From NCBI GenBank assembly GCA_947574215.1, contig CANPIX010000001.1:15201-79200 (forward strand): DNA of 64,000 bases, written 5' to 3'. The notes below the pieces were generated by a model, which did not search any database, was not told the DNA's origin, and saw only the letters and a program-made list of their open reading frames with translations. This document shows positions 1,479 to 62,652 of the stretch, one piece after another. Both the position numbers and the translations under genes were made by a program. Source of the stretch: an uncultured Mycoplasmatota bacterium. GTDB lineage: Bacteria; Bacillota_I; Bacilli_A; RF39; UBA660. Position 1 is the stretch's first letter, and the number at the start of each line of letters is the position of its first letter.

Positions 1479-3320
1479 GTGGTTAAAATGGAAAATGGAA
1501 TTTTTTTCTCAGTTATAAGTTTTGTCTATTGTATATTTGCAATGGTTTTGTTCTTTTCAAAAGATAAAATAAAATCGAAAGAAAATAAAATATATAGTAT
1601 TCTTCTTATAACCAATTTAATTGGTTTGTTTATTGAAGTAATCCCAATTACTCTAGGAATTCGAAATTTAATTTCTATGAGCAATACAACTTTGATTTTT
1701 TTATTAAAATTACTTCTTATATATTTCATAACATGGACTTTACTTTTTACCGATTATGTATTAATTGTTTCAAAAATGAAAGAAAAAACTATAAGTTTTT
1801 TTAAAACAATCGGTGTTATTTTAGAAATCATAAGTTCTATTGTTGTATTATTTCTCCCACTAGATTATTATATAAACAATGGGGCTGCGTATAGTTATGG
1901 TACTTCAGTAAATTATTGTTATTTATTAGCTGGGGTATTAATAAGTCTTTGCATTATTTTTTTACTTTTAAATATTAAAAAAATACCTTTAAAAAAATAT
2001 TACCCTCTACTTGTTTTTCTTCTATTAGGTACTATTATTATGATGATTCAATCTAAATTCCCAGAATTAACTTTAATGTCTTCTCTTCATACCTTTGTAA
2101 TTTTAGTCATGTTTCATTCTATAGAAAATCCAGATTTAAATTTAATTAATGAATTGGAAATCGCAAAAGAACAAGCAGATAAAGCCAATCAAGCAAAAAC
2201 GGAATTTTTATCCAGTATGTCTCACGAAATAAGAACGCCACTAAACGCTATTGTAGGTTTTAGTGAATGTATGTTGCCTTCTACCGATTTAAATGAGATA
2301 AAAGGTTTTGCAAAAGATATTGTAGATGCTTCTCACAACTTACTAGAAATTGTAAATGGTATTTTAGATATTTCAAAAATTGAAGCCAATAAAATGGAGA
2401 TTGTTCGCAAAGAGTACAATCCTAGAGAAGTTTTTAATTCTTTATGTAAATTGGTACGTCCAAGAATTGGAAATAAACCCATTGTATTTAAAGAAAATAT
2501 TTCTCCAGATCTGCCAGGTATTTTAAAAGGAGATATGGGAAAAGTTAAACAAATAATTTTAAATCTCCTTACTAACGCTGCAAAATACACAGATGAAGGT
2601 GAAATAGAATTTAATGTAACTTGTGTCAATCGGACAGATACAAAAAAATGTCTTCTTTATATTGCTGTTAAAGATACTGGACGTGGCATAAAACAAGAAG
2701 ATGTAAGTAAGTTATTTAATAAATTTGAAAGAATTGATGAAGATCGAAATACTACTATTGAGGGTACTGGACTTGGTCTTGCCATTACCAAAAGCTTAGC
2801 CGAAATGATGGGTGGTAAAATTACAGTTGACACAAAATTTGAAGAAGGATCTGTTTTTCGTGTTTATTTAGAACAAGAAATTATAAGTATGGAAATTCCA
2901 GAAAGTCAGTCTGAAGAAATAGAAATCGATTATAGTGCAAATCCTGGTAAGCGAATTTTAATTGTAGACGATTCAAAAATCAATTTAAAAGTAGCTAATC
3001 AAATATTAAAACCTTATAATTTTAATGTCACAATGGTGGAAAATGGTTTTGAGTGCTTAGAATTAATGGAAAGTAGTACTTATGATTTAATCTTAATGGA
3101 TATTATGATGCCAAAAATGAATGGTATAGAAACATTAAGAAGATTAAAGACAATAGAAGGTTTTGATATTCCAGTCATCGCTTTGACCGCTGATGCCATT
3201 GAAGGAACCGATGAAAAATACTTAAACGCTGGCTTTGATGCTTATCTTTCAAAACCAATTGATCGATACGATTTGGATCGAATGTTAAATAAATATTTAG
3301 GAGGAAAAAATGATGAATAA
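1479..3320 (+). CDS. hybrid sensor histidine kinase (multi-TM sensor, HisKA, HATPase_c, C-terminal receiver)
   Basis: N-terminal hydrophobic helices. H-box [17 protein letters not shown]-boxes GTGLGLAI. C-terminal REC domain ([11 protein letters not shown]...[13 protein letters not shown]). Confidence 0.85.
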
Positions 3321-4071
3321 TATTGATTTGTTAAAAGCATACAATGTAGATATTAACGCTGCATTAGAATTATGGGGAGACATGGAGTCTTATAACGAAA
3401 GTTTAAAAGAATTCAAAGATTCTTTGAATTCCAAACTTGCAAGTTTGGAAAACTTTAAAAATACAAATGACCTACAGAATTATGCTATTCTTGCTCATAG
3501 TATGAAAAGTGAATCCAAATACTTAGGTTTTATGAATGAAGCTGAAATATTTTTAGCCCATGAATTAAATGGAAAAGAAGGAAATAAAGAATTTATAGAT
3601 AATAACTTTAATACCATCAAAGAGACTGTTCGTAAAATGGTTACTCTGTTAAATTCCTATTTTAATAATGAAGAGAATGGACACAAAAAAAAGATTTTAA
3701 TTGCTGATGATTCAAATATTATTTTAAATTATTTAGAAAAAAATATAACTGAAGAATATAAAGTTTTAAAGGCGTTTGATGGTAGCGAAGCTATTGAATT
3801 ACTGAAAAACAATAGTATTTATGCTATTTTACTAGATTTAAATATGCCAGGATTAGATGGATTTGAAGTTTTAAAATATTTAAAAGAAAGCAATTTAATG
3901 GATAAAATTCCAGTGGTTATTATTACTGGCGATGATACAGAAGAAACTATAAAAAAGGCGTTTTCTTACCCTATTTTAGATGTTTTAAATAAACCATTTA
4001 ATGATAAAAGTGTTGATAAAATATTTATTTCTATTAAAAGTTTTTATGAAAATAAAAAAATTAGTGTATAA
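3310..4071 (+). CDS. Hpt domain + receiver domain protein (phosphorelay component)
   Basis: N-terminal Hpt-like [12 protein letters not shown] motif. C-terminal REC domain ([11 protein letters not shown]...[11 protein letters not shown]). Overlaps the hybrid HK by 11 nt and has a GGAGG Shine-Dalgarno. Confidence 0.75.
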
Positions 4072-5544: not shown

Positions 5545-7341
5545 TCATTCATTTTGTACTAATAATTCATATTCATCCAATAATTTTTCTAAATAAAGAA
5601 ATGCATTTTCGTAAATTTCTTTATTTGCTAAATCAATACCTCCTATAGCTAAAGTTTCTAATGTTGGTTTTGCACCTCCAATAGTTAAAAATTTTAAATA
5701 ATTTTCTATATTTCCTTTCTTTATATTTTTATTAATTACTAAAGCTACAATTTTTCCAATAGCGTATTGAAAATTATAATAACGGTGGACATCATAAAAG
5801 AAATGAATTCTTGTTTGCCATAAATATTTTATTTCTTGATCTGGCGTTAAATTACTATAGTATTCTTTAAATAATGTTAAAAATGTTTCATTTAAGGTAT
5901 CTTCATTTACATACCCTTCTTGTTCTATTTTTGTTAACATTCTTTTTTGGAATTCAAAAAACATTGTTTGAAAAAATATACTGGCGACTGTCTTATCTAT
6001 AATTTGTTCCAAATGAATGATTTTATTTTCTTTTGTAGTAACATTATACATATACTCTTCCACTAAATCTTCATTAACTGTAGATGCAATTTCGGAGAGA
6101 AAAATTGAAAAATGAAAATTTTGAAACTCTTGATTCTCTTTAATCATTAATCCATTTACTGCATGACCGATCTCATGCCCTATCGTTGCAACTTCACGAA
6201 AATTTTCTTTGTAATTCATTAAAATCATTGGTTTTGTATAATTACGCCAGTGATATCCACCTGAAAATTTATGCTTTTTAGGATAAGGATCTATTATGCC
6301 ACCATTAATTACTTTATCTAAATAGATTTCATACTCTTTTCCTAAATCCTTTAACGCTTCTTTTACAATAAATAATCCTTCTTCAAAAGAATATTTTGGA
6401 TTGTACTCACTATTAATATTCATATCATAAAAATGAAGTTCTTCTATACCTAGTTTTTGTTTTTTTAAATCAATATATCGATTTAATAGAAAAATATTTT
6501 CATGAACAGAACATAGTAGATTTTCATATATTTTTGTATCCAAATCCTCTTTGATTATCACTTCTTCTAAAATACTTTTGTAACCATTTTCTTTAGCAAT
6601 ATCAAAGCACATTTTGTATCTCATATTAAAAAGATTACAAATACTTTTATTCACATTTTTTAAACTTCCCATATACGTTTTAAAAATTTTTTCACGTATT
6701 TCTCTATTTTGACTTGTTATGTATCGATTGTAAATGCTTCCATTTACTTTTAGCTTTTCCTGATTTATCTCTATTTCTTCTAAAGGCATCTCCACTTGCA
6801 TAATAGTATTATAAAGACTATTAACCTGACTAATTAAAACATTTTCGTTAGAAATTACATTACTATTTATTGTATGTTCTTTTAATCGTAAAACTTCATA
6901 AAAATGCATTCGATAAGACTTTACTTCTGGATGTTTCTTTAAATAAGTATCCAATGGTTCTTCTATTTTTAAAATTTCTTCATTTATTCTATTTTTTATA
7001 GATTCCAATTTACTTTTCTCAAAATAAACCTTATTTTTGTACTCCAAAAAATTGGCATTTGAAATGTCTAAATCTGAGTTTAATTCTGCATACGATAACA
7101 GTTTTTCAGCCATTAAGCTAAGTTCATAATATTTCTTTAATTGTTTTTCCAATGAATAATTTTTCCTATTATTTTCAAAAGTAAATATTTCTTCTTGAAA
7201 AAGTTTTACTGTCGATAAAAATTCTTCTAAAGAAGAAAAAAAGTCACTAAAATCCCATTTTATTTTTTTCAAAGGAATACCTTCTTTCTTTTTGCTACAT
7301 TTTGAGTTGGCTACCCTGTTTGTAAACCATATTCTGAACAC
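5545..7341 (-). CDS. pepF: oligoendopeptidase F (M3B family)
   Basis: HEIGHAVN zinc motif. Length of about 600 aa and overall M3B-like sequence. Confidence 0.85.
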   Translation of the reverse strand: MFRIWFTNRVANSKCSKKKEGIPLKKIKWDFSDFFSSLEEFLSTVKLFQEEIFTFENNRKNYSLEKQLKKYYELSLMAEKLLSYAELNSDLDISNANFLEYKNKVYFEKSKLESIKNRINEEILKIEEPLDTYLKKHPEVKSYRMHFYEVLRLKEHTINSNVISNENVLISQVNSLYNTIMQVEMPLEEIEINQEKLKVNGSIYNRYITSQNREIREKIFKTYMGSLKNVNKSICNLFNMRYKMCFDIAKENGYKSILEEVIIKEDLDTKIYENLLCSVHENIFLLNRYIDLKKQKLGIEELHFYDMNINSEYNPKYSFEEGLFIVKEALKDLGKEYEIYLDKVINGGIIDPYPKKHKFSGGYHWRNYTKPMILMNYKENFREVATIGHEIGHAVNGLMIKENQEFQNFHFSIFLSEIASTVNEDLVEEYMYNVTTKENKIIHLEQIIDKTVASIFFQTMFFEFQKRMLTKIEQEGYVNEDTLNETFLTLFKEYYSNLTPDQEIKYLWQTRIHFFYDVHRYYNFQYAIGKIVALVINKNIKKGNIENYLKFLTIGGAKPTLETLAIGGIDLANKEIYENAFLYLEKLLDEYELLVQNE

Positions 7342-8594
7342 ATTTCTATATATTCTTTCATTGAAACTTTATTTATAAACTCTCCATTTTTATAACAATA
7401 TTTATAATAATTTATATTAAGACTTTTATTAGCATTTGTACCAAATTGCTCTTTGTTATTAGAGACATACCACAGCTTTGACATATATTATTTTCTATTT
7501 TTTTTACTCAAATCATTTCTAATATTATTATTTGTTTACTAGAGACATTATAACATTTTTCTACAAGCAAAAAAAGATAAAAAACTAGATATAATTTAGT
7601 AAATTTTCTAAAATGGGAACATTGGGATTGTTATTTACAACTTTTTATTTATTAACGGACAAAAATTGAATAAGGAGAAACTAATTCGGCAATCATTACT
7701 ATTTTTAATTTTTGCTCTTTATTTGATTTTTTAGATGTTTTAATGGCGCAAGCCTTATCTACTCTGCCTTTTAAATAATCCCCTAAACTTTTTCCTTATG
7801 AATTACCAATTGCAATTTCATAATCATTAAGATTTATTTGTAACTATAGCATATTTTGAACTTAACACATTAATAAATTAATATTACTTCATGCTTTTTT
7901 ATCAATAGAATAGTAACTAGAACACTTAGGAATATTATTTAATTCTGATATAGTTGAGGTCAATAAAAGATACACTTTTTCTTTATTTTTACAAAATGGC
8001 TGTACCTGATTTAATGGATGAATATAATGTTCCAGCATATCCCAAACAAAAATAACCGACATTTGCTTCTTCTTGTTTCTCATTATTCTAAACCTATTCT
8101 CGAAATATAGGTGAATTTATAAATATTGCATGTTCGCTTGTTTAATTATTTATAATATGCTACTATTTTCTAGGAATATTTGGTTAGTTTGGGTACTATT
8201 CTCCTTTACTTTTAAAAGTGGAAGGAGTCGAAATTATGAGAAAATCAGAGAAATAATCTTTGTACTATCATAATACTCCTTATTATTGTGATTATAATCA
8301 TATTAATAAAAATAGTACCAACTTTATAAGTCGGTACTAAATCAAAAACATTTTGGAATAGTACCTAACTCTTCAAAACTAGGTATTCCTTTTTTATTTT
8401 ATGCAAGTTTCCTTGACATATTCATAATAACATAAAAAAAGACTTTTGACAAGTCTCTTATCTAAAGTTCGAATAGTTCGAACAGATTGTCCAATGGTAC
8501 GGACAAATAGTATATCCGAAACCTTAGAAATAGTTGATAAACAACTAATCACTAAAATTATAATAACATAATTTTTAATAAATTAAAATATTTT

Positions 8595-13174: not shown

Positions 13175-13284
13175 TGATAAAAATCTCGTTTTTTGAAAAA
13201 AGAAACGATGTTTTTATTATGAAGAGAAAATAAGAATATTTGTACTTCGCTATTTAAATAAAAGATAGTAAAAATAGAATTTAA

Positions 13285-13312
13285 AAAATATCCTTTTTTG
13301 GATATTTTATTT
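13285..13312. terminator. bidirectional rho-independent terminator
   Basis: aatatcc-tttttt-ggatatt hairpin flanked by A-run and T-run, between convergent VanY-like and rplT genes. Confidence 0.55.
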
Positions 13313-13867
13313 TAAATTATTAATTAATTCTTCTTTTTTCATTGTAGAATAACCTTTAACACCTTGATCTTTTGCTATTGCTTTTAATTCTGTTAAAGTC
13401 ATTTTACTATAATCTTTTATTTCCTCTTTAGATGACACTTTTACTTCCTCTTTTGCTGGACTTAATTTTTGCTCTTCTTTAACTATTGCTTTTTCCACTT
13501 GTTTTTTACCGTTTTTTAATGCATCTTTTGCAACATTTACTAAATTAGCAAATCCTACTGCATCATCAATAGCTAATTCTGATAACATTTTTCTATTCAC
13601 TTCAATTCCTGCAATATTAAGTCCATTAATAAATTTAGAATAACTGATATCATTTTCACGACATCCTGCGTTTATTCTTGTTATCCATAATTTACGGAAA
13701 TTTCTTTTATTTGCTCTTCTATCACGATAAGCGTACTCTCCGCTATGAAATACTTGTTCTTGTGCTGTTTTATATAATCTATGTTTGCTTCCAAAATACC
13801 CTTTGGCTTGTTTTAATACTTTTCTTCTTCTGTTTTTAGAAACAGTTCCACCTTTAACTCTTGTCAT
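13307..13867 (-). CDS. rplT: 50S ribosomal protein L20 with ~65-aa C-terminal Rho_N/SAP-like extension
   Basis: The first ~120 aa match L20 ([29 protein letters not shown]...WITRINAG...IEVNRKML). The extra tail ends in [27 protein letters not shown], a Rho_N-type motif. Confidence 0.85.
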
Positions 13868-13882
13868 TTATAACCTTCCTTA

Positions 13883-14080
13883 CTAGATTACTGACTTGAT
13901 TCTGTCAGTATCTCCTTTACTTAGTGTTCCTTGTTTTCTTCTGTGTCTAATTTGTTTTGCACTATCTTTATTGGTTTTATGATTTCCACCTGATTTTTTA
14001 TAAGATAATGTTCCATTCGCACGTTTTTTAAACACTTTACTACTTGCTTTGTGTGTTTTTTGTTTTGGTCCTTTTGCCAT
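13883..14080 (-). CDS. rpmI: 50S ribosomal protein L35
   Basis: MAKGPKQKTHKASSKVFKKR...LSKGD. 65 aa, basic. Confidence 0.8.
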   Translation of the reverse strand: MAKGPKQKTHKASSKVFKKRANGTLSYKKSGGNHKTNKDSAKQIRHRRKQGTLSKGDTDRIKSVI

Positions 14081-14095
14081 TGTAATCCTTCTTTC

Positions 14096-14626
14096 TTATT
14101 TTTCTTTTTTTGGTGCTAAAATGATATACATACTTCTACCTTCCATTTTTGGTTCAGTTTCTGTAATTGCAAACTCACTTAAGCTATCGGCAAATTTTAA
14201 TAAGACATCACGCCCTAATTCTGTATGAGCCATTTGTCTTCCTTTAAAACGAACTATGCCTTTAATTTTATGTCCTTTTTCTAAATATTCTTTTGCGTTT
14301 CTAGAACGAGTATCGAAATCATGCACATCAATTGTTACAGACAAACGATATTCTTTGACTTCTTTATTTGTCTCACGTTGCTTTTTTTGAGCTTCTTTTA
14401 ATTTTTTTTGTTTCTCGTATTTATATTTATTGTAATCCATTACTTTAGCAACTGCAGGTGTTGCCCCAGCGTTCATTAAAACCAAATCAAGTCCTGCGTA
14501 ATTAGCAAGTGTTAAAGCATCTTCTAGTTTTTTTAAGCCCATTTGTTCTCCATTTGGTCCTATAACCATCAACTCTGCAACTCTAATTTGTTCATTAATT
14601 GGCAAGTCGTTTTTATTATTTGCTAT
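14096..14626 (-). CDS. infC: translation initiation factor IF-3, non-AUG start (ATA/ATT upstream of the TTG shown in the track)
   Basis: IF-3 N- and C-domains (LDLVLMN, ATPAVAKVMDYNKYKYE, RLSVTIDVHDFDTRSRNA). The tracked start is TTG at 14605. GGAGG lies at 14640-14636, with in-frame ATT (14632) and ATA (14626) 3 to 9 nt after it. Confidence 0.85.
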   Translation of the reverse strand: MANNKNDLPINEQIRVAELMVIGPNGEQMGLKKLEDALTLANYAGLDLVLMNAGATPAVAKVMDYNKYKYEKQKKLKEAQKKQRETNKEVKEYRLSVTIDVHDFDTRSRNAKEYLEKGHKIKGIVRFKGRQMAHTELGRDVLLKFADSLSEFAITETEPKMEGRSMYIILAPKKEK

Positions 14627-14639
14627 ATAAATGCACCTC

Positions 14640-14770
14640 CATACATTTTAAAAGGTAGATACACTTGTATCCACCTAAAAAAGCAAAAATCACACTATTT
14701 TTTGGCTTTCAACCTATTTGCTTTTGCAAATCAGGTGGACTGGATATAAGTCTCTTTCCTTTTTGTAACA
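14640..14770 (-). promoter_or_regulatory. putative infC leader (L20-responsive, autoregulatory region)
   Basis: ~130-nt untranslated leader between the predicted TSS and infC, with an AAAAGCAAA...TTTGCTTTT hairpin. Position is analogous to the Firmicute infC-rpmI-rplT L20 leader. Confidence 0.35.
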
Positions 14771-14775
14771 ACTAG

Positions 14776-14805
14776 ATTATATAGTATATTTTATGTGATT
14801 GTCAA
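14776..14805 (-). promoter_or_regulatory. sigmaA-type promoter for infC-rpmI-rplT (-35 TTGACA, 18-nt spacer, -10 TATAAT)
   Basis: On the minus strand, TTGACA at 14805-14800 and TATAAT at 14781-14776. Confidence 0.55.
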
Positions 14806-29303: not shown

Positions 29304-30587
29304 TTATCTAATTTTTCCCAACGAATCTTCCTCAATAGTATTTAAACGTTTTAAATCTTTTTCTGAGATTTGAATAACTTTTCCGCAACATGGATAAAAA
29401 TTTTTATTTCCATACACAATCCATATTATATTTTCATTTTTTAAATCTTCTTTAGGCATATTTCCAGGCCCAGGAATTCCATCCGTAAATACAATTTTAT
29501 TAATTTCTTTTTTCGCAGTAAAAGATCGTACCGCTAAATCCCAATCTTCTGTCCAAGCAAAATGAGAAGAATTTTCAGGAATTTCAAAATTATCAATATC
29601 TTTTGTTGATTTGATTTCTTTCCATCCCCAAAATTTTTCGTTAAAACATCCTACTTTTAATTTTGAATAGGAAAAAATGTTTTTTACGATTCTTAAGAAT
29701 GCTTTTACCAATTCTAAACTAACAGAGCCTGAAATATCAATCTGAACTTCCGTTTCACATTCTTCTTCTAAATCCGTTTCTTCTAAGCGATACGCATAAT
29801 TATTTTCTGCTATGCTTCTTCGTTGGCTCCAAATAATTTCTTCCTTTTCACTTTCTTTACGGAGCAAAAGTTCCCAATTAATTGTTTTTTCGCTTTCACC
29901 AACATTTCCTATTACCATAGAAGAAGACTTTTCTTCTTTCTTTTTTAAAACTCTTTCTTTCATTTGCTTATAATTTTGTTTGGCTTTTTGAAGTCGTTCT
30001 TGTCTATTTTCTGAAAATTCTTGATTTTCTTTTATTTCTTCAAACTCAAAATTATCTTCTAATTGCTCTTTTGCTTTTACAAACGCATCTTCCCATAAAC
30101 TATGATCACTTCCCGAAAACTCTTTTGCATTTGATTGGGTTTTCTTTTCTTTAATTAAAATCTCATAAAGTTCATCTGCTGAATAATTAAGTGCACCTGG
30201 AATATTCACATATCCTTGTTTTATTTTAAATCCATCTCTTTCTAGATTGGCATTAATAATGGCATCGGTTGCTTCGTTCCATACATCCAAATTTCTTTTT
30301 TTCTTATTATATTCTAAACGAAAAGGATGCCAAAACTTATTGTGCATTAACTCATGTGCTATTAAAAACAATCGATCGTTTTCATTCAATGTTTTCAAAT
30401 AATTTGGATCAATATATATTTTTTTACCATCCGTTGCAGCCGTATGATATTTTAAATGTTCATTAAATTCAAAAGAAGTATTTGCAATGTTACTTCCAAA
30501 ATGAGGATATTTTAAAAGTAATAATTGAATTGTCTCTTCTAATAATTTTTGTTCTTCCTTCATAAGTCTCCTAAAAAGCAACAACAC
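29304..30587 (-). CDS. HExxH putative metallopeptidase-like N-domain + VWA-like C-domain protein (DUF2201-type MoxR partner)
   Basis: HELMHNKFWHP...NEATDAIIN at the N-terminus. The C-terminal domain resembles VWA-like partners of MoxR ATPases. Overlaps the upstream ORF by 17 nt. Confidence 0.5.
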   Translation of the reverse strand: MLLLFRRLMKEEQKLLEETIQLLLLKYPHFGSNIANTSFEFNEHLKYHTAATDGKKIYIDPNYLKTLNENDRLFLIAHELMHNKFWHPFRLEYNKKKRNLDVWNEATDAIINANLERDGFKIKQGYVNIPGALNYSADELYEILIKEKKTQSNAKEFSGSDHSLWEDAFVKAKEQLEDNFEFEEIKENQEFSENRQERLQKAKQNYKQMKERVLKKKEEKSSSMVIGNVGESEKTINWELLLRKESEKEEIIWSQRRSIAENNYAYRLEETDLEEECETEVQIDISGSVSLELVKAFLRIVKNIFSYSKLKVGCFNEKFWGWKEIKSTKDIDNFEIPENSSHFAWTEDWDLAVRSFTAKKEINKIVFTDGIPGPGNMPKEDLKNENIIWIVYGNKNFYPCCGKVIQISEKDLKRLNTIEEDSLGKIR

Positions 30588-30960
30588 TAAAATGATACAA
30601 ATCTTCTGAAATATTTTTTATATTTTCTTGACATTGAATAGTAAAGACAACAATTACATTTTCAGGAAGCGTATAGCCATGAAATTCACGATTTTTTATC
30701 AAATTTATAAAACGATTTTGTTCTTCTTTTTTAATTTGATCTATTAAACGAATAACAAAATATGTGATACTCCCATTACTTGAAACTCGATCCAATTGTT
30801 TTTGAAAAAGAGGTTCACCAAAAGGAGTTCCGATCAAATAAGGATCTTTTATTTTGGCATCCATAAACACCGTTTGACCTAAATCCCTATAAAACTCGTC
30901 TAATATAATAACACAAGTACTATTTACTCCCTTTTGTAATTCAATTAATTCTTTATTCAT
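30571..30960 (-). CDS. hypothetical protein, translationally coupled between the AAA ATPase and the VWA-like protein
   Basis: ORF overlapping both neighbours by 4 nt and 17 nt. Confidence 0.4.
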   Translation of the reverse strand: MNKELIELQKGVNSTCVIILDEFYRDLGQTVFMDAKIKDPYLIGTPFGEPLFQKQLDRVSSNGSITYFVIRLIDQIKKEEQNRFINLIKNREFHGYTLPENVIVVFTIQCQENIKNISEDLYHFSVVAF

Positions 30961-33044
30961 CGGCTAACACCTTCTTTTATTTCTAACGATTCCATATTTT
31001 CTCGTTCTTTTAATTCATAAATAAATTCCATTCTCTTTTCGTCTTTTCCAATCCAACACAAATCGTATAAATCTCGATATTCAGGATCACAATATTCTTT
31101 TATAAATTTCCGACATTCCGCCACTTCCAATTCGTTTGCAAATAAAAGTGCAGAAACCAAAGCGTATCTTTCATTACTATCTCTAGGCAAATCAGTTTGA
31201 GTGTAATTTTTATTAACTACATCTTCCACCGAAAGTGTCATTTGATTGTAATAAGAAAAAAATTCTTCTGCCCAATACTCACGAAGCTTAGTGTGTATTG
31301 AAATTTTTAAAATATCTTCTACATCTTTTCCACTATATTTTCCCGCTTTTAAATTTTTTTCAAAAAGATAAAGTGTATTAGAAATGGAAACCCATCCACG
31401 AGGATCATTGGTTCTTCCTTTGCATCCCCATTTATCTAGTTGCTCTTCTCCTACTTCTGGTTCTTCATAAAAGTAGGAAATATCTTCTATTCTTTCACTT
31501 TTTCCAGTGCTTAAATACTTAGACAAAATATAATGGATAACCTGAGGGTGAACTTTGTTTGGTATAGCGAATTCAAAAAGCCATTCTCCCACCTTCGGCT
31601 CCATATCAAAAATGTGATCAAAACGTTTTTCTAATGGTTCGGCAAGATCTTGTGCAATGTTAGAGTATTTTTTTTGATTACCCGTTGCCACAATAACGAC
31701 ATTTTCTGGAAGTTTTAAACCTCCATTCATTTCTATCAAACGATTCAAAACCAAAGTATAAACAAGTCCTTGTACTGTTGGCTTTACATTTAGTAGTTCA
31801 TCCAATAGAAGAACAATCTTTTTTTCATTTTTTTTACTTCTTTCATACAAAGTATCAGCTAAATCATTTAAATTTTGGATATTTTCTTGAATTAATTTTT
31901 TTTCTTCTTCACTTGCACATCTTAACATAGCTTCTTTGTAAAAATCTGGAGGTATGCTTTGACCCGTTTGTAGATTTATAGATCCAACTACTTTTTCTGG
32001 AAACATATTGTTTGTTAATTTCAGATAAATTAAATCAGGATAAAGTGATTTTATTCTTTCTGTCTTTCCAATTCCAGATGGTCCACGCAAAAGTACAGAT
32101 TGTCCTGATTCAATCCAATTGTGTATAAGCTCTGTATCTGTCATTTTAACTCTTTCTTCTGCTTTGGTTTCATCTGGGTTCATTTTTTGTAATCTCGTTT
32201 TTCTTGGTTCTTTACTTGACTCTATTGTTTTTGCTACTTGGAAGTTTTTTGGAACGTTTACTACTTTAGCAAAATATTGATCCAAAAATTTTTTAATATT
32301 GGTATTATTAAAATCTCCTTTGTAATTTCTTTCTTTATTAAATTGAACACCAGAAAACAAAATAATTTTGGCAAGAGCTATATTTTCTTTTTCAGAAATC
32401 AGCCATTTTATCGGTTCTACTTCTATCCAATAAGGTTTTCCCTCTTTTATGGCTTCTCCATTCGATAAAGTTTGTTCTTTTCCATTAGAATCTCCTATAA
32501 ATCGAATGTATTTTTTATCATTATAAAAATACGTATCAAAAGTACGCAACTTAAAATCCGTATCGTATTTGTCATAAGCTATAGAATCAGCAGGATATTT
32601 TACTTCAGTTTTTAGAAGTTTTCCCCTTTTAAAGTTTTTTTCTAATTCTTTTTCTACGGCTTTAGAAACAACTGTTTGTGGCCATTCAAAGCATTCTACT
32701 TCAACAACTCCGTTTGCCCCTCTCACTTCGTTCGAGGAGATGGATTGGATTACTGAGTAAGGTAAAGCTGGACGACACCCAACTTTCCTATAATGAACAT
32801 TATACCAATGACTATCTCCAATCGAGTCAACCGCGCAGGCATCGTTATCTACAGGTGTTTTGCTCCACCACCAGCCAGTTCGATTTTTTAAATGTTCTTC
32901 TTCATTTGTATAAAAAAAATCTGATACTGCTCCTCCTAATAAAATAGAAAAATCAGATATAGCACACTTTGTCCCATATTTTTTTAGCACTTCTAATTGC
33001 TTTTCTCCAAATATTTGTTCTTCTGTTAAAAATGTAAAATCCAT
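30957..33044 (-). CDS. DGR target protein: N-terminal C-type-lectin-like variable domain fused to a MoxR/AAA_5 ATPase
   Basis: AAA_5 motifs: Walker A LLRGPSGIGKTERI, Walker B LLLDELLNV, and sensor VATGNQ. Residues ~75-100 are encoded by the VR. A WWWSKT...VGCRPAL signature resembles DUF1566/FGE-type CLec targets. Confidence 0.75.
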   Translation of the reverse strand: MDFTFLTEEQIFGEKQLEVLKKYGTKCAISDFSILLGGAVSDFFYTNEEEHLKNRTGWWWSKTPVDNDACAVDSIGDSHWYNVHYRKVGCRPALPYSVIQSISSNEVRGANGVVEVECFEWPQTVVSKAVEKELEKNFKRGKLLKTEVKYPADSIAYDKYDTDFKLRTFDTYFYNDKKYIRFIGDSNGKEQTLSNGEAIKEGKPYWIEVEPIKWLISEKENIALAKIILFSGVQFNKERNYKGDFNNTNIKKFLDQYFAKVVNVPKNFQVAKTIESSKEPRKTRLQKMNPDETKAEERVKMTDTELIHNWIESGQSVLLRGPSGIGKTERIKSLYPDLIYLKLTNNMFPEKVVGSINLQTGQSIPPDFYKEAMLRCASEEEKKLIQENIQNLNDLADTLYERSKKNEKKIVLLLDELLNVKPTVQGLVYTLVLNRLIEMNGGLKLPENVVIVATGNQKKYSNIAQDLAEPLEKRFDHIFDMEPKVGEWLFEFAIPNKVHPQVIHYILSKYLSTGKSERIEDISYFYEEPEVGEEQLDKWGCKGRTNDPRGWVSISNTLYLFEKNLKAGKYSGKDVEDILKISIHTKLREYWAEEFFSYYNQMTLSVEDVVNKNYTQTDLPRDSNERYALVSALLFANELEVAECRKFIKEYCDPEYRDLYDLCWIGKDEKRMEFIYELKERENMESLEIKEGVSR
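32765..32838 (-). repeat. DGR variable repeat (VR) inside the target gene
   Basis: A 74-bp match to 34355-34428. 11 of 12 mismatches occur where the TR coding strand has A. Confidence 0.8.
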
Positions 33045-33119
33045 ATGACACTCACCTTTATTTTAATAATAACACAAATTGTAATTTTTTGGTATTTTCT
33101 TAGTACTTTGACATTTTTT

Positions 33120-34142
33120 TTACATTTTGGGATGTACTTTTTCTATAAACTTCTTACTTTCTTGTGTTTTTTTCACATGGTTATAAAAAGCATTTTTTCT
33201 CTCATAAACATATTTTTCATCGACTATTTTTTTCTCATACAACTTATCGATCGTTTTTAGATGTTTTTTCATTCGCTTTTTAGAAGATTGTCTTAATTTA
33301 ACTATAATTTTTCCGTTTTCTTTTACAATATGACGATATCCTAAAAAATCAATACCATTTTGAACGCAACCAATTTGCGTTTTTTCGTTTAAATTTAAAT
33401 CCAAATTTTTTCTACACATCTCTTCTATTTTTGTTTTACAATCTTTTAAAAACGCTTTCTCACAATGGATCAAAATCATATCATCCATATAACGAATATA
33501 ATGTTTCACTTGTAATCTTTCTTTTATCAAACGATCTATACCATTTAAATAAAATAAAGCAAACCATTGACTTGATTGATTTCCTAATGGTAGACCCTTA
33601 TTTACGTTATTGGGCTGTTCTTGGATCAATTTTTGAATCATCCAAATTTCATCCAAAGAAAAATCTAATTTCTCCAAAAGTTTTAATAAAATTGTGTGAT
33701 TTATACTTGGAAAATATTTTTTTATATCACACTTTAAAAAGTAAAACTGGTTACTTCCTTTTTTTCTATATTCTTTTTTTAAAAACAAATGCAAACGTTG
33801 AATCGCAAAATTGATACCTTTTCCTTTCTGACAAGCAACATTATCGTAAATTAATCTCTTTTCTAATTTTGGTTTTAAAGAATAATCACAAAAACAACGC
33901 ACTACCACTCGATCTTTAAAGGGAAGCGCTTCAATTAATCTTTCTTTTGGTTCATAAATTAAAAATTGTTTGTATTTTCCTAACTTGTATTTTCTGGTTG
34001 TAATTTCTTCTATAATTTTATAAATATTCATAGCCAGATTAATTTCAAACCGAATAACTTCTCCTTTATGTTGCTTCCCTTTTCGACAATGTTTATAGGA
34101 AAGATAAATATTTTCAAAAGTAAATATTTCTTCTAACTTCAT
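33120..34142 (-). CDS. DGR-type reverse transcriptase
   Basis: RT motifs including YMDD (YIRYMDDMILIH) and the DGR-characteristic LPLGNQSSQ. 340 aa. TR lies immediately upstream. Confidence 0.85.
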   Translation of the reverse strand: MKLEEIFTFENIYLSYKHCRKGKQHKGEVIRFEINLAMNIYKIIEEITTRKYKLGKYKQFLIYEPKERLIEALPFKDRVVVRCFCDYSLKPKLEKRLIYDNVACQKGKGINFAIQRLHLFLKKEYRKKGSNQFYFLKCDIKKYFPSINHTILLKLLEKLDFSLDEIWMIQKLIQEQPNNVNKGLPLGNQSSQWFALFYLNGIDRLIKERLQVKHYIRYMDDMILIHCEKAFLKDCKTKIEEMCRKNLDLNLNEKTQIGCVQNGIDFLGYRHIVKENGKIIVKLRQSSKKRMKKHLKTIDKLYEKKIVDEKYVYERKNAFYNHVKKTQESKKFIEKVHPKM

Positions 34143-34354
34143 AAATCTCCTTAAAAAAGAAACACTCTTTTCAATGTTCCAAAAAAATATTTCGTTGGTT
34201 CATCTAGAGTGTTTTTTATTCTTCTATTGCTTATTTAAAAAACGTAGCCAATAGAAAAGAAGAAAATTCCTTCACCTTACAATATTGATTTATTTTTCTT
34301 AAAATAAATTTCTCAAATTTGTTTTTTGGATTTTACAAAATCCCTTCAAAAGTG

Positions 34355-34428
34355 AATCTGGACGAGACCCAACTTTCCTATTATTAACATTATTCCAATT
34401 TCTATTTCCATTTTAGTTAACCGCGCAG
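34355..34428 (-). repeat. DGR template repeat (TR), intergenic between avd-like gene and RT
   Basis: Non-coding copy of the VR. In the VR reading frame it is dominated by AAT/AAC codons: aac, aat, aat, aat, aat, aat, aat, aat. Confidence 0.8.
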
Positions 34429-34476
34429 CAAAACGCCTCAAAAAAGAGGGCCTCACAAAATAAATTTTCTTCTTAA

Positions 34477-35070
34477 TTAAAGGCTTTTCAACCTAAAATC
34501 CTTATTTTTAAATCTTTCATCATCACTTTTTTTCCAAGCACCTATTAAATTGATACTCTTAGCAATTTGTTTTGCTATTTGTTTGTATTGCCGTTTTAAA
34601 ATACATCCAGATGATTCTGCTAACATAGAAATATAGCCAAGTAGTTTCAATTTAATAATGGCATCTTTTTGTAAATTCTCTCTTTGGATTTTGTTTTCTT
34701 TTGAATCCATTCGAATAAAGTTTGCTTCTAACAAAAGTTCTAAAGTATCTAAACAATAATTTTGCATGCGGTTTACAAAAACCCCACGAAACTTTTTAGG
34801 AGATTTTTCGGTGACTACCAAAACATACGCGCCTAATTTTTTAATCTGAGTAATCACAATTAAATCGTTGGCATTAAATGGAATTTTTTCTATTTGTTTT
34901 AATTCCTCGTCAGCTAAAATAAATTCTTCTTTTTCTTTATATTTTTCATTATTTGCCTTACATATTTCCTTTTTTACTGCCAATATATCTTCTTTTGTAT
35001 TCAAATTTTCTTCCATATCCAAAACAATTTTAGGAATTTTTAAATTGTTTGCTCTACTAACTTGCAACAC
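34477..35070 (-). CDS. avd: Avd-like accessory variability determinant (four-helix-bundle family), with N-terminal extension or internal start
   Basis: The C-terminal ~130 aa resemble the Avd/four-helix-bundle family: SPKKFRGVFVNRMQNY ~ PKEE+YGLTSQ+RRAA, and LKLLGYIS...QIAKSINLIGAWKKS ~ AKDLGYI...ISKMLNGLIKSL. Basic. Ends 49 nt before TR. Confidence 0.55.
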   Translation of the reverse strand: MLQVSRANNLKIPKIVLDMEENLNTKEDILAVKKEICKANNEKYKEKEEFILADEELKQIEKIPFNANDLIVITQIKKLGAYVLVVTEKSPKKFRGVFVNRMQNYCLDTLELLLEANFIRMDSKENKIQRENLQKDAIIKLKLLGYISMLAESSGCILKRQYKQIAKQIAKSINLIGAWKKSDDERFKNKDFRLKSL

Positions 35071-35661: not shown

Positions 35662-37209
35662 TTATTCTTTTGGCAAAGTTAGTAAATAATAAGTCTCGTA
35701 TTTTTTAGCATTTTTTATTATCAATTTTTCTCCATTGTATGCATACAATTTGTTTTTATATACTTTTAAATGATCAAATTTATAGGCAAGAATGCTTTTA
35801 TGATTTTTGGCATTTCGATCTCTAGTACCATCATAATATACCATATATTTTCCACTACTCAAATATTCTAAATCTGTAATTAAAACATCGCCTTCTTTGG
35901 TAGATGTAACAATTCTTAAAGTATTTGGAATTTTAGCGCTTACATTTTTCATAAAATCGTCGTATGCTTTTTTATTAATTACTTTGTCTTTTTCTATTAC
36001 ATAATTGCCGTCTTTTTTCGCATCTTGAATAGAAAAATCATCTGAAAGCAATTCTAATTTTTTAAATTTTGTATCAATATCACAAGAGTTTCCAATACCG
36101 TATGTTATCGAAATTTGATTTAAAAACAATCCTTTTTTTATGCTATGTTCTGTAATCGTATAATTTTCTTTTGAATTGTAATAATAATTTTTTCCATCAC
36201 AATTTAAAAGTTCATAATGGCTTATTATTTCATCCATTTCTTTTTTTAAAGCTTTTACACTTCTTGGGGTGCTAAATGTTGCATTGTAATTACAGCATTC
36301 TTCTTTTAATTTTACAAATTTAGGTATATCTAAAATTTTGTTAGAAGCTTCGGATTTATAAGTGCTTATCCCATACGGAAGCTTTAATAAAATAGAACTT
36401 ATCAGACAAAAAATTGCAATGAATAAAAGGATTTTTCTTGTTTTTTTGAAATTCTTTTTTTGTTCCGAAAGATTTTCTTGCAATTTTTTTTCTTGTGTTT
36501 TTTCTTTTTTATCAGAAGAAATATTTTTTTTCTCTAACTTTTTAACTGGGTCTTTTTTTATTTTGGATTGTAAAAAATTTTTAAAATGCAATGCATTTGT
36601 TTTTATACTTTTCCCTATAAATTTTGTAATTTGTTTGGTTTGTTTTCCTATATTTTTTTTATATTTTTTGAAATGAATCCCTAATTTTTTAGAACGGATT
36701 TTTATAGTTTTAACAAAATCTTTACTTATTTTTTTTACTTGTTTTTGAAGCGTTGACCAAATTCTTTTCCCAATCTTTTCTTTTGAAATTTTATTAGAAG
36801 AAACTGCTTTTCCTACTTTTTTTTGAGTGGATACAATTTTTTTAATCGGTTTTACTTCTTTTTTTTCCACTTTCTTTTCTTTATTTGGTGTTCCTTTTTT
36901 AGAAGAGAGTTCCTTTTTATTTGTTGATTTTGTAGAGGATTTTTTTTCGCTTAAATTTATTTTGTTTGAAGTTGTTTTTTTGGTTGTTTTAGAAGACGTT
37001 CCTTTTTTTGGAGTAGAAGGTTTTGCCTTTGTAGTAGTACTTTTACCTGTAGAAGGATTTGTCTTTTTTACTGTTGTTGACTTCTTTTTCGGTGCTGAAG
37101 ATGGCTTTGCAGTTGTTATTGAATTTGCTTTTTTAGTGGAACTCGTTGTTGTCTTCTTTACATTTTTAGAAGTGGTTTTTGTTTTGCTTTCCGTTTTCTT
37201 TTCTGCCAT
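35662..37209 (-). CDS. membrane protein with ~260-aa Lys/Ser/Thr-rich basic N-terminal tail, single TM and ~230-aa C-terminal extracytoplasmic domain
   Basis: Extreme K/T/S low-complexity region, then TM helix ILLFIAIFCLISSILL, then a globular C-domain. Confidence 0.5.
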   Translation of the reverse strand: MAEKKTESKTKTTSKNVKKTTTSSTKKANSITTAKPSSAPKKKSTTVKKTNPSTGKSTTTKAKPSTPKKGTSSKTTKKTTSNKINLSEKKSSTKSTNKKELSSKKGTPNKEKKVEKKEVKPIKKIVSTQKKVGKAVSSNKISKEKIGKRIWSTLQKQVKKISKDFVKTIKIRSKKLGIHFKKYKKNIGKQTKQITKFIGKSIKTNALHFKNFLQSKIKKDPVKKLEKKNISSDKKEKTQEKKLQENLSEQKKNFKKTRKILLFIAIFCLISSILLKLPYGISTYKSEASNKILDIPKFVKLKEECCNYNATFSTPRSVKALKKEMDEIISHYELLNCDGKNYYYNSKENYTITEHSIKKGLFLNQISITYGIGNSCDIDTKFKKLELLSDDFSIQDAKKDGNYVIEKDKVINKKAYDDFMKNVSAKIPNTLRIVTSTKEGDVLITDLEYLSSGKYMVYYDGTRDRNAKNHKSILAYKFDHLKVYKNKLYAYNGEKLIIKNAKKYETYYLLTLPKE

Positions 37210-59229: not shown

Positions 59230-59814
59230 TTATGCTCCTTGTCTTCCTAGATATTCAATTACTATAGTTAATAAAGGATTTGTAAAATAAGAAGTTGAAC
59301 TAATATTTGGCAAATCAGGGGAATCTAAATAAATATTCTGATCCGTTAAATTTACCAATTCGTACAAATCCGTTGTATTGTTTATTGCGATTATACCTTG
59401 TCCTACCAATTGTATTGGTATCTCTTCTGTTGTAAACTGACTTGTTCCAATATAAATGTTGTCTGTTCCAACTTTTTTAAATCCAAGAGATACAAAATCG
59501 GTTGTTTTATCAAATACATTATTTTTATGTAAAACATAAGCATTTACTGTAAAAGTAATTTTATAATAACCTTCCATATTAAACTTAATCGTTTCATCTG
59601 TAGTATCTAGCGTAATTAAATCACTGATATCTAATTCTTCTCTATCAATAGGAAGTCGATCTTTTGCAGGAACGGCGAGTCCATTACCTAATGTACCATT
59701 ATTGAAAGTGGCAAGATAAGCAGAGCGAGCAATGTTTGTTCCTGCGGGTCCAACTGGTCCTGTTGCACCTTGCGGAATTGTAAAATTTATTTCATAACTT
59801 TCGCCTTGGTTCAT
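59230..59814 (-). CDS. BclA-like short-collagen-triplet protein with C-terminal C1q/TNF-like domain (paralog 1)
   Basis: N-terminal motif YEINFTIPQGATGPVGPAG followed by a beta-rich ~160-aa domain. Confidence 0.5.
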   Translation of the reverse strand: MNQGESYEINFTIPQGATGPVGPAGTNIARSAYLATFNNGTLGNGLAVPAKDRLPIDREELDISDLITLDTTDETIKFNMEGYYKITFTVNAYVLHKNNVFDKTTDFVSLGFKKVGTDNIYIGTSQFTTEEIPIQLVGQGIIAINNTTDLYELVNLTDQNIYLDSPDLPNISSTSYFTNPLLTIVIEYLGRQGA

Positions 59815-59836
59815 CGAAATTTCCTTTCTTAAAATA

Positions 59837-60175
59837 CTAAGGAGTCGTATTGGTTGGTGTTATCGTTACACTTGCTTGACTACCTGCAGCTCCTGTTGTT
59901 ACAGTTCCTATTACTAATCTAGGCGCTGGTCCTGTTGGTCCTTCTGCTCCTTGTACTCCTTGTGGTCCGACTGGTCCTGTCGGTCCTTCTGCTCCTTGTG
60001 GTCCTGCTGGCCCTGCTATTCCTTGGTCTCCTTTTTCTCCTTTATCCCCTTGTGGTCCCATAGCTCCTGGATCCCCTTGGTCTCCTTTTGGTCCTTGAGC
60101 TCCTTGTGGAATTACAAAATCAAGTGTATAACTAGATGCATTATTTGCATCTGCATAAATATCATTAAAATCCAT
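59837..60175 (-). CDS. collagen-like GXY-repeat protein (paralog 2, lacks globular C-domain)
   Basis: [20 protein letters not shown], about 20 GXY triplets, and C-terminal [20 protein letters not shown]. Confidence 0.5.
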
Positions 60176-60195
60176 ATTTTTTTTCCTTTCTTTTT

Positions 60196-60642
60196 TTAAT
60201 TCGATGGTGTAATAGTTACTTTTGCGGGTGTACCTGGTGCTCCCGTTATAACTTTCCCTATCATAAATGTTGGTGCTATACCATCTTCACCAGCGGGTCC
60301 TGTTGGTCCTGGTATCCCTTGAATACCTTGCGGTCCAGTTGGTCCGATAGATCCAGAAGGCCCTTGTAGTCCTTGTGGTCCCATTGGTCCTGTTGCTCCA
60401 TTTGGAATTGTAAATTCTAAAACTGAATTTTCATTAGTTCCTACATTTTTAACAGACGCATCGCTTCCTGGAGCACCTTGTATTGTTCTACCAACCGTTA
60501 CAGTGGCAGGTCCTTGTGGTCCTGTTGGTCCTGTTGGTCCTATGATTCCACGACTTGAACAACAACATCCTTGTACAGAATGATTTCTGTTGTAACTTTC
60601 CACATATTCACACGCTTTTTGGTATTCTCTACTATTGTTCAT
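60196..60642 (-). CDS. collagen-like GXY-repeat protein (paralog 3, internally duplicated motifs)
   Basis: [12 protein letters not shown]. Internal [17 protein letters not shown]-terminal [19 protein letters not shown]. Confidence 0.5.
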
Positions 60643-60765
60643 GTTTCTCTCCTTTCATAAGTAATATATGAAGGGAAATCATTTTTCGTATGTTGATTTG
60701 CCTTATAGAAATTCATTTTCACAAAAAAAGATATATTCTAAAAACTTATATATCCTTATGTTATA

Positions 60766-61251
60766 TTAATCGATTTTCTTTATGACAAGGCTTGCATTTT
60801 CATCGATTGCAACTTCTGTTTCCACATCAGAGGCAATTATAATTCTTATAGTACTATCTTTTTGCAAGTTACAAATTGTATTACCACTAAATACGGTTTT
60901 TTCATTGATAGCTAATGATTTGGTCTTTTCTGTTGCTAAAACTAAATCTCCGTTATCCCAAACTGATAAAGTTATATTGGCCTTTTTTGAAGTGGCAACG
61001 TCTACAACAAAACTTATCTCATAGATACCATTTTGTTCAATTGCAATACTATTTTCTGTAGTATAATTCATATGATTTGCAAGCATTTTATCATTTAAAG
61101 GAAGAATTACAGAGTTATTTATTCCCAAATGCAACACATTTAAACAATTACTATAAATTCCTCCATAAGCATTCAGTCCATTGGATGGTCCAACAGGACC
61201 TGTTGGTCCTTGTGGAATTGTAAAATCCAACACAAAGTTTTTCGGTTTCAT
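60766..61251 (-). CDS. BclA-like protein (paralog 4)
   Basis: [16 protein letters not shown]-motif and a beta-rich C-domain. Confidence 0.5.
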   Translation of the reverse strand: MKPKNFVLDFTIPQGPTGPVGPSNGLNAYGGIYSNCLNVLHLGINNSVILPLNDKMLANHMNYTTENSIAIEQNGIYEISFVVDVATSKKANITLSVWDNGDLVLATEKTKSLAINEKTVFSGNTICNLQKDSTIRIIIASDVETEVAIDENASLVIKKID

Positions 61252-61671
61252 ATTTTTTTCCTTTCTTTCTAATTAAAATTCAATTATTGACTATTACTTT
61301 TTATGATTTTATGTTTAAACATTCGTATTCATTTTTCATAAATAAAATTTATTTTTGAATATTAATATTGATTATTTAAAAAATTCTTAATTTTACATCT
61401 ATTTTTTATAAAGTAAAACAGACTAAACTTTTCTATTTTCTTGTTAAATAAAAATTTAATTAACTTTTTAAGTGTTTGGAGTATTGTTCTATTTTCTTAA
61501 TATTGACTAGAATTTTATTTTTCAAGTAGACCTTATAAAGTTTATATAAAATTTTTCTACTAATTCAAAAGATAATCTTTTCCTTTTCTAATTTTTTTTA
61601 ACAGCAAATTATCTTTACACTATTTTATGAAAAAGAAAAAAAATCGTTCCAAAACAAAAAAAATTTCCTTT

Positions 61672-62148
61672 TTAATAAGGAAACTTTTTGATAATTAAAT
61701 TAGCATTTTCTAAAATTCCGTTGGAAGTGCTACTTTTATTAAATTCTATAACTAATCGAACAGAAGAATTTGCTTTTAAAATTTTTGTTTGTGAAAAATA
61801 AATTTCTTGCGAATTGTCTAATGAAATTGTTATAAAATTTTCTTCTACTCCATTGTCTTCGGTTTTTATAATTACAGAAGAACTTGTAGTGGAACCTGTT
61901 TCTTTTAATCTACCACTAAAAGAGATTTCATAATATCCTATTTCATTTAAAAAAATCGTGTTATTTGTAAATGCAAATATATTAAAATTTTCTGGTACAA
62001 CATTAGTTCTTATTAAAGTTAAATAACTAGCTGATGTAGCGTTTTCAAAATTTGTATAAAAAATCGCTGTAATTCCAATGGGACCTGTGGGTCCTGTTGG
62101 TCCTTCTGGTATGATAAAATCAAGTGTATAGTCTGAATCCAAATCCAT
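61672..62148 (-). CDS. BclA-like protein (paralog 5)
   Basis: [18 protein letters not shown]-motif and a beta-rich C-domain ending LIIKKF. Confidence 0.5.
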   Translation of the reverse strand: MDLDSDYTLDFIIPEGPTGPTGPIGITAIFYTNFENATSASYLTLIRTNVVPENFNIFAFTNNTIFLNEIGYYEISFSGRLKETGSTTSSSVIIKTEDNGVEENFITISLDNSQEIYFSQTKILKANSSVRLVIEFNKSSTSNGILENANLIIKKFPY

Positions 62149-62163
62149 AGTTTCCTCCCATTT

Positions 62164-62652
62164 TTACAATTTTTGAAAAGAAAAACGTTTTATATTTAAA
62201 GAAACATTTTCTAATAAAGCGTCTGAATTTCCATTTTTTTGAAAAATAATAGCTACTTTTTGTAAAGAGCCATATTCTCCCATTTTGATTTGAGAAAAAA
62301 ATATTTCTTTGGTTCCCGTTTGCAATTCTATTGAAATTAAATTATTAGAAAATCCATTAGTATTTTGAGTTTTTAAGATAACATTGGCACCTAAATTCGT
62401 GTTTGTTTCTTTAATCGTTCCTGTTAAAGTATACTGAAAATACCCTGTATCTGTAAAATAGATATATTCATCATCAGACGTAAAAAGAGAAGAATCTGGT
62501 GGAGATTTAAATGTATTTAAAATCATTAAATTGCCATTCGTTGAAGAAGGATTGTACGTAACGTATATGTTTGGCTCATTGGCAATAGGTCCAGTAGGTC
62601 CTGTAATTCCCCTAGGTATCGTAAAATCTATTTTGTATTCTTTTGCATTCAT
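62164..62652 (-). CDS. BclA-like protein (paralog 6)
   Basis: IDFTIPRGITGPTGPIA N-motif and a beta-rich C-domain ending LNIKRF. Confidence 0.5.
   Translation of the reverse strand: MNAKEYKIDFTIPRGITGPTGPIANEPNIYVTYNPSSTNGNLMILNTFKSPPDSSLFTSDDEYIYFTDTGYFQYTLTGTIKETNTNLGANVILKTQNTNGFSNNLISIELQTGTKEIFFSQIKMGEYGSLQKVAIIFQKNGNSDALLENVSLNIKRFSFQKL

Follow-up and report, generated by a model that had tools for sequence, protein, structure and literature searches.

Why should a bacterial ribosomal protein L20 end in a small domain resembling the N-terminus of transcription termination factor Rho, and what might such a domain accomplish on the ribosome? The question is raised by rplT of an uncultured Mycoplasmatota bacterium (GenBank assembly GCA_947574215.1), which is found within a stretch of 64,000 nucleotides (positions 15,201 to 79,200 of contig CANPIX010000001.1) hereafter referred to as the window; its G+C content is 27.6% and TGA is read as a stop codon. 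The gene occupies positions 13307–13867 of the window, exactly as proposed in an earlier examination of the letters without database searches (hereafter, the sequence-only reading), and is carried by the minus strand, like all the features of this locus mentioned below; it begins with ATG, comprises 186 codons and ends with TAA.

By sequence comparison, residues 1–118 (13514–13867) are a complete and ordinary bL20. They contain the match to Pfam Ribosomal_L20 (PF00453; residues 3–109, E = 1.2e-44, 151 bits vis-à-vis a threshold of 30.8), cover all 114 positions (1–114) of TIGR01032 with 157.9 bits (cut-off 65.65), align end to end with the 118-residue bL20 of S. aureus (PDB 4wce_N) and are helical in the AlphaFold2 model, so that the description of the first ~120 amino acids as ordinary L20, given by the sequence-only reading, turned out to be accurate. 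Since the staphylococcal protein spans precisely residues 1–118, the extension begins where a normal Firmicute L20 stops; none of the solved bL20 structures in the PDB could be aligned past about residue 125 of the window protein.

The extension is 68 amino acids long (about 65 had been counted initially) and consists of a 32-residue linker (residues 119–150; 13418–13513), rich in lysine (eight) and glutamate (seven) and predicted to be disordered, followed by a 36-residue module (residues 151–186; 13310–13417), the order of linker and tail being the one originally described. A tandem-repeat origin of the linker was considered and discarded, its periodicity of 12 nt being merely weak (score 35). 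The module matches Pfam Rho_N (PF07498) with residues 154–184 (13316–13408), which align to positions 3–33 of the 43 of the model with E = 2.4e-10 and 40.6 bits, a score that increases to 42.8 bits with the isolated tail, the gathering threshold being 24.9; the match is far beyond chance and bears out the similarity to the Rho motif that the sequence-only reading had recognized in residues 156–186. AlphaFold2, provided with an alignment of 31 sequences, assigned no secondary structure to residues 121–150, whose predicted local distance difference test (pLDDT) values range from 30 to 44, and modeled two helices within the module (residues 158–168 and 178–185, pLDDT 74–82); the model of the tail alone reached a pLDDT of 84, and over the two models the helices lie between 74 and 89. 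When this fold was compared with the PDB by Foldseek, the top match was the N-terminus of Rho (1a8v), with a root mean square deviation (rmsd) of 0.9 Å over 30 columns, followed by other Rho structures and then by the SAP domains of Tho1 and Hcc-1 and the SAP subdomain of FAN1, the best matches having rmsd values of about 0.9–1.1 Å; a sequence search of the PDB with the module matched only two Rho proteins and, marginally, mitochondrial bL28m. Because the Pfam match above threshold, the two predicted helices and the Rho and SAP structures retrieved by Foldseek all converge, the view is supported that in the L20 tail a KE-rich linker leads to a helix–extension–helix (HeH) domain of the Rho_N/SAP class.

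Could the extension nevertheless be an artefact, i.e., the read-through product of a sequencing or assembly error by which the genuine termination codon, at about position 119 of the protein, was lost? Nothing was found that supports this explanation, whose probability we regard as practically nil. Indeed, the identical 186-residue protein is encoded by contigs of at least three separate ENA assemblies, within the same infC-rpmI-rplT-VanY context, and PF00453 and PF07498 are jointly present in all of the 120 best homologues (72–100% identity, 173–195 amino acids). Furthermore, when each species was represented by a single genome, 547 related loci were retrieved, the best 80 of which were read and their rplT extracted; linker and module are found at the end of the gene in 74 of these 80 species loci, deep branches included. 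In the window itself the stop codon directly adjoins a hairpin resembling an intrinsic terminator (13279–13308; 9-bp stem followed by a U-run, RNA folding energy −8 kcal/mol, z = −2.9) that begins inside the stop codon. Finally, the tail is under purifying selection in the very frame of L20. The independent assemblies, the architecture of the homologues and this in-frame selection rule out the loss of a stop codon.

The comparison of the relatives also provides a picture of how the three parts of the protein evolve. Their tails display a linker rich in K, E, T and V that is variable in both sequence and length (10–51 amino acids, median 29; 31% K and 21% E), followed by a module whose consensus starts with D-L/Y-S-K-M-T-L/V-A-E-L-K. 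On average, two modules are 64% identical and two L20 cores 78%, and the ratio of non-synonymous to synonymous substitution rates (dN/dS), pooled by the method of Nei and Gojobori over 337 close pairs, is 0.25 for the former and 0.125 for the latter; the module, as judged from these substitutions, is evolving under purifying selection. A conserved core, an indel-rich linker and a conserved module with low dN/dS point to a functional domain attached to a flexible tether. The genomes in question are metagenome-assembled genomes from the gut labeled “uncultured Bacilli” or “Tenericutes”, together with Clostridium sp. CAG:609, Mycoplasma sp. CAG:956 and Candidatus Ventrenecus, and the species loci probably belong to the order RF39, in which CAG genera of this type have been placed (PMC8035907); the window itself would then come from RF39 or from a close relative of it.

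Does the resemblance to Rho imply a Rho function? The L20 module has in common with the Rho N-terminal domain (PF07498; PDB 1a8v, 8hsj, 7oqh) both the sequence motif and the two-helix fold, whereas it is C-terminal instead of N-terminal and is accompanied neither by the OB-fold RNA-binding domain nor by the ATPase. The two Rho equivalog models, TIGR00767 and NF006886, give the window protein 16.0 and 16.5 bits, respectively, vis-à-vis cut-offs of 509 and 315, and only over positions 2–38. Since the 31-residue HeH motif alone is matched, a Rho function of the tail was rejected and the protein is no termination factor. A study of Rho diversification (PMC11347177), which made use of PF07498 solely to detect Rho and did not cover the lineage of the window, reports that Mycoplasmatota lack Rho, as do 30% of Bacillota. 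A Rho_N match in these genomes should be taken with caution by annotators, as it is no proof of the presence of Rho.

The fusion as such is already catalogued. The best NCBIfam match of the window protein is NF011109 (PRK14537, “50S ribosomal protein L20/unknown domain fusion protein”), a family having the same architecture, to which the protein is aligned with 166.3 bits, a score below the curated cut-off of 187. All of 27 diverse relatives match this model; 184.8 bits are attained by one of them (L047), and the top-scoring relative, having an E-value of 6.7e-58, reaches an estimated 196 bits or so (calculated from the E-value), which is above the cut-off. The isolated tail of the window protein aligns to positions 163–224 of the 232 of NF011109 (E = 2.9e-5) and the tail of ribosomal protein S2, to be described below, to positions 146–225. 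Since it is the C-terminal part of the model that is aligned, the “unknown domain”, to which NF011109 assigns neither a name nor a function, is, on the strength of these alignments, the linker plus the HeH module. The Rho_N tag is likewise present in the precomputed Pfam annotation and the fusion is lineage-wide, so that what is added here is its context, namely its occurrence on S2, the signs of gene conversion and the basic tails that take its place in some species. A full-text search of the literature found no paper on an L20/Rho_N fusion and none on the “sunset domain”. The latter gives its name to two exception models of NCBIfam, the “sunset domain variants” NF051450 (for L20) and NF051451 (for S2), a precedent for the acquisition of small C-terminal add-ons by the same two ribosomal proteins in some lineages. 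The HeH module does not align with the last roughly 40 positions of either model and the scores remain far under the cut-offs (142 versus 375 for NF051450 and 292 versus 710 for NF051451); the window protein matches NF051450 with 142.3 bits over positions 1–177 of 219 only, and its tail alone gives no match. The finding that both the sunset variants and the HeH module occur on exactly L20 and S2 suggests that the C-termini of these two proteins are favored sites for add-ons.

In 17 related loci (L032, L036, L041, L042, L049, L051, L053, L055, L063, L064, L066, L068, L072, L074, L076, L079 and L080) the gene directly 3′ of rplT is rpsB, which starts about 50–100 nt after it (e.g., rpsB of L036, about 6659–7579), and every complete rpsB among them encodes at its C-terminus a K/E-rich linker and a Rho_N/HeH module like those of L20. 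Entries combining S2 and Rho_N are also common in the protein collection searched, one of them bearing a module of the window's own subtype. Thus, the uS2 of the relatives resembles the window L20 in having the same module and a K/E-rich linker at the C-terminus of a solvent-side ribosomal protein, and differs from it in belonging to the small subunit and in being seen in relatives only, as rpsB lies outside the window.

How similar are the two copies? Over the last 34 codons or so, the L20 and S2 modules of these 17 loci have a mean amino-acid identity of 0.71 within genomes versus 0.52 between genomes, and identical residues are specified by the same codon with a frequency of 0.74 within versus 0.62 between genomes, a value that increases to 0.84–0.93 in L036, L064 and L079. 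In individual genomes the two copies are up to 100% identical as proteins and 93% identical in codon usage, and in the three loci just mentioned they share rare variants, such as a shortened I-[AS]-V-T-G-L-K-K loop. The likeness within genomes, the shared codons and the rare loop variants suggest that gene conversion between the adjacent rplT and rpsB homogenizes the modules in several genomes; they also show that the module works independently of the protein that hosts it.

The many S2 + Rho_N database entries of only 130–178 amino acids had prompted the idea of a general splitting of rpsB in this lineage, an idea that was abandoned after three contigs had been inspected and three different causes found: an N-gap (L088), an in-frame TGA where the relatives have Gly (L087) and a reproducible −1 frameshift (L085). 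In the last contig (ENA ERZ1314705 NODE_26, positions 2543–3480) rpsB consists of two open reading frames (ORFs) overlapping in ATGA at AGAAAATGACT, the −1 shift occurring on an A-run beside the stop codon with zero residues lost; the same protein is encoded by 10 contigs from several samples, and the break could represent a site of frameshifting, a gene split into two translationally coupled parts or an error common to these sequences. The homologue search seems, moreover, to favor candidates close to the query in length.

What is found at the end of L20 in the species loci that do not have the module? In all six of the best 80 loci (L067, i.e., Mycoplasma sp. CAG:956, L069, L071, L075, L077 and L078) linker and HeH are replaced by a histone-H1-like, low-complexity “AKKTTT” tail rich in K, T and A, which begins at about residue 119, is 53–72 amino acids long and carries a net charge of +8 to +14; a comparison of these tails with histone-H1-like models gave only non-significant matches (E = 0.2–0.4). 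The six species are scattered over a neighbor-joining tree built from the 118-residue L20 core only and having low resolution.

The module belongs to a large family. SAP and HeH/LEM domains (PF02037, PF12949; Tho1, Hcc-1, FAN1, Ku70) are likewise helix–extension–helix structures of about 35 residues, which often terminate a flexible linker and whose binding to DNA or RNA is established; unlike the L20 module, they are found in eukaryotic nuclear proteins and not in ribosomal ones. Three of the related L20 proteins match the Ku70 model. A profile of the module, searched against 1.84 billion representative proteins, gave 4038 matches at E ≤ 1e-3; among the top 147, Rho_N is matched by all 147, SAP by 101 and HeH/LEM by 36, and the partner domains of these relatives (HMG boxes, helicases, a GRF zinc finger and FAN1-type SAP) constitute a DNA context. 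Stand-alone proteins of 60–90 residues, consisting of linker and module and of an RF39-like sequence type, also occur, one of them under the NCBI name “Rho termination factor N-terminal domain-containing protein”. In the window, the tail profile finds only rplT among all six-frame ORFs of at least 30 amino acids. Staphylococcal and streptococcal phages encode modules that are 57–62% identical to that of L20, and the presence of the module in phages indicates that it is mobile between cellular and viral genes. The phage records collected (H1–H18) include, for instance, Staphylococcus phages 80, 29 and 52A, Streptococcus phage Javan226 and a 4966-bp “Bacteriophage sp.” from human feces (MT838699.1); their modules are 57–69% identical to the L20 tail and their labels are “transcriptional terminator”, “Arc-like repressor” or hypothetical.

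This mobility might be taken to mean that the module is a passenger without function, i.e., that recombination and gene conversion have disseminated a promiscuous mini-domain which is simply tolerated at exposed C-termini. Its presence in phage genes and in many different architectures, the signs of conversion between rplT and rpsB and its loss or replacement in a few species are all compatible with such an origin, and yet we hold it to be very improbable that the module does nothing: a dN/dS of 0.25, a pairwise identity of 64% (the core having 78%) and the fact that 74 of the 80 species loci, deep branches included, have kept the module are not what is expected of a tolerated passenger, and when the module is lost its place is taken by another tail, never by none.

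What, then, could be the function of this domain? Domains of the HeH, SAP and Rho_N types are known above all as binders of the DNA or RNA backbone; in the 50S subunit, bL20 terminates with a helix whose end is exposed to the solvent, and the C-termini of bL20 and uS2 are both located on solvent faces of the ribosome, far apart from each other. A scheme to which we would give about an even chance is that the extension is a nucleic-acid-binding arm of low specificity: the L20 core would be placed as usual in the 50S subunit, the module would swing freely on its tether up to about 100 Å, and its binding to AT-rich duplex DNA of the nucleoid, or to RNA, would hold ribosomes, free L20 during assembly, or free S2, near the AT-rich chromosome or near RNA. 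Since the two C-termini are on the solvent side and distant from each other, the L20 and S2 modules would be individually mobile and unable to cooperate at a single site. This scheme is favored because the domain class is one of known binders and because the partner domains of the relatives are mostly DNA-related; the replacement by a basic tail in six species and the interchange of modules between L20 and S2 fit a generic role in nucleic-acid or polyanion binding.

Several data, on the other hand, speak against such an arm. The module is only weakly basic, with net charges from −2 to +3 that average about +1, and positive and negative charges are mixed in the linker. The SAP model (PF02037) remains below its gathering threshold of 23.9 bits both with the whole protein (15.2 bits) and with the tail (20.7 bits), and the matches of the tail to SAP_new25 and Ish1 are likewise sub-threshold and weaker than that to Rho_N; as to the structural comparison, the top Foldseek matches have query-normalized TM-scores of 0.70–0.78 with E-values of at least 0.9, which for a 38-residue query are non-significant. 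No solved ribosome having this L20 tail was found in the PDB, and the exposure of the module at the ribosomal surface is inferred from established ribosome structures; its binding to nucleic acids is likewise a proposal. Furthermore, some SAP-like folds bind proteins, as does the C-terminal domain of CDNF with BiP, and this very domain is among the Foldseek matches of the module. Finally, modules of the same subtype, which also occur at the C-terminus of an Hsp20, are found on small proteins whose N-termini resemble signal peptides or membrane anchors; for these small proteins a nucleic-acid partner is less obvious.

The last two points lend themselves to a different interpretation, namely that HeH is a protein-docking tag that would recruit a specific protein, or another HeH-bearing protein, to both subunits, or would cluster ribosomes. 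The location of the module on both bL20 and uS2, far apart on the 70S ribosome, and its occurrence on apparently unrelated carriers, the stand-alone 60–90-residue proteins among them, would suit a tag of this kind, as would the precedent of CDNF and BiP. We nevertheless consider this interpretation unlikely, in that no candidate partner was identified and the substitution of the module by a non-specific, basic low-complexity tail in six species is better accounted for by charge-based binding; in addition, some of the odd carriers may be assembly chimeras. The small proteins, the Hsp20 and the stand-alone proteins mentioned are P0135, P0139, P0183, P0184, P0217, P0229, P0164, P0221 and P0389. 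Modules joined to N-terminal fragments of FtsY, TopA, GpsA and a MurG-like protein were set aside as possible chimeras and not used as evidence, P0239 and P0248 having identical tails.

Could the nucleic acid bound be simply the RNA that L20 itself recognizes? L20 is known to be an assembly initiator and an autoregulator, and its tail might strengthen the binding of the protein to 23S rRNA in early 50S assembly or to the L20 leader that would autoregulate infC-rpmI-rplT. The locus does offer a candidate for the latter target: a putative leader of the Firmicute attenuator type is found upstream of infC (14641–14762), between this gene and a sigma-70-type promoter-like site (TTGACA-18-TATAAT, 14776–14805) that was identified by pattern matching alone and agrees with the consensus in 12 of 12 positions. 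The match with Rfam RF00558 extends over the full model (1–127) and is sub-threshold, with 32.3 bits versus a gathering score of 58.7 and an E-value of 6.5e-4 in a 2.2-kb search. However, the presence of the module also on uS2 and its exchange between the two genes indicate that it is not tailored to the RNA sites of L20, a generic basic tail can replace it, and the L20 core is itself fully conserved; taken together, these considerations make a dedicated role in the protein's own RNA binding distinctly improbable.

A more far-reaching idea can also be formulated. In this order of gut Bacilli with reduced genomes, the two subunits would carry the same HeH module, on bL20 of the 50S and on uS2 of the 30S, kept alike by gene conversion and sometimes swapped for a histone-like tail, and together these arms would constitute a dedicated system by which ribosomes are attached to one another, to nascent RNA or to the AT-rich chromosome, i.e., a new spatial organization of translation that possibly replaces coupling factors lost in genome reduction. 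This idea is speculative and we are inclined to doubt it. Bacterial ribosomes vary between clades in few respects, one of which is lineage-specific additions to their proteins, mostly of no known function; here, a folded domain of a nucleic-acid-binding type is borne on a long tether by L20, and in the relatives by S2 as well, across abundant uncultured bacteria of the human and animal gut. Should the module bind DNA or RNA, it would bear on the positioning of ribosomes with respect to the nucleoid in small AT-rich cells; should its ligand be a protein, a new factor associated with the ribosome would thereby be defined. For annotation, the name Rho_N/HeH can now be attached to what an NCBI family lists as an “unknown domain”.

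Returning to the locus, rplT is the last gene of an infC-rpmI-rplT operon, the order of genes that is typical for bL20. Immediately upstream of rplT is rpmI (bL35; 13883–14080), identified by Pfam Ribosomal_L35p on the identical locus, which is preceded by infC, the first gene of the operon (IF3; 14096–14605), likewise identified on the identical locus by IF3_N and IF3_C. The starts proposed by the gene callers for infC are ATG codons that would yield proteins of 148 or 157 amino acids. The conserved N-terminal residues of IF3 (PINEQIRVAEL...) are encoded 5′ of the first infC ATG (14569–14605), and this location indicates that the start is probably a non-ATG codon, the candidate being TTG at 14605. 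A non-ATG start is typical for IF3 autoregulation.

A few features located elsewhere in the window, again on the minus strand, may be mentioned. Positions 30957–35016 contain a cassette that resembles a diversity-generating retroelement and comprises a bAvd-like ORF (34477–35016, a sub-threshold match), a template repeat (about 34349–34428), a reverse transcriptase (33120–34142) and a 695-residue target ORF (30957–33044), which also has an AAA_5 ATPase domain and whose residues 69–96 are encoded by the variable repeat (32759–32838); 12 of the 15 mismatches between template and variable repeat are at template adenines. Next to the target are ORFs for a 129-residue protein and for a DUF2201_N metallopeptidase-like protein (29304–30563).

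The 515-residue product of positions 35662–37209 (minus strand) begins with a strongly basic, K/T/S-rich low-complexity region of roughly 270 residues, followed by one predicted transmembrane helix and by a C-terminal DUF4362-like domain (sub-threshold); it represents another basic tail, in the same genome that carries the rplT–HeH fusion. Finally, positions 59230–62652 of the minus strand contain six small ORFs (112–194 amino acids) with collagen-like G-P-T-G-P repeats and a common “DFTIPQGPTGP” start, one of which (60196–60642) matches Pfam Collagen with 30 bits.

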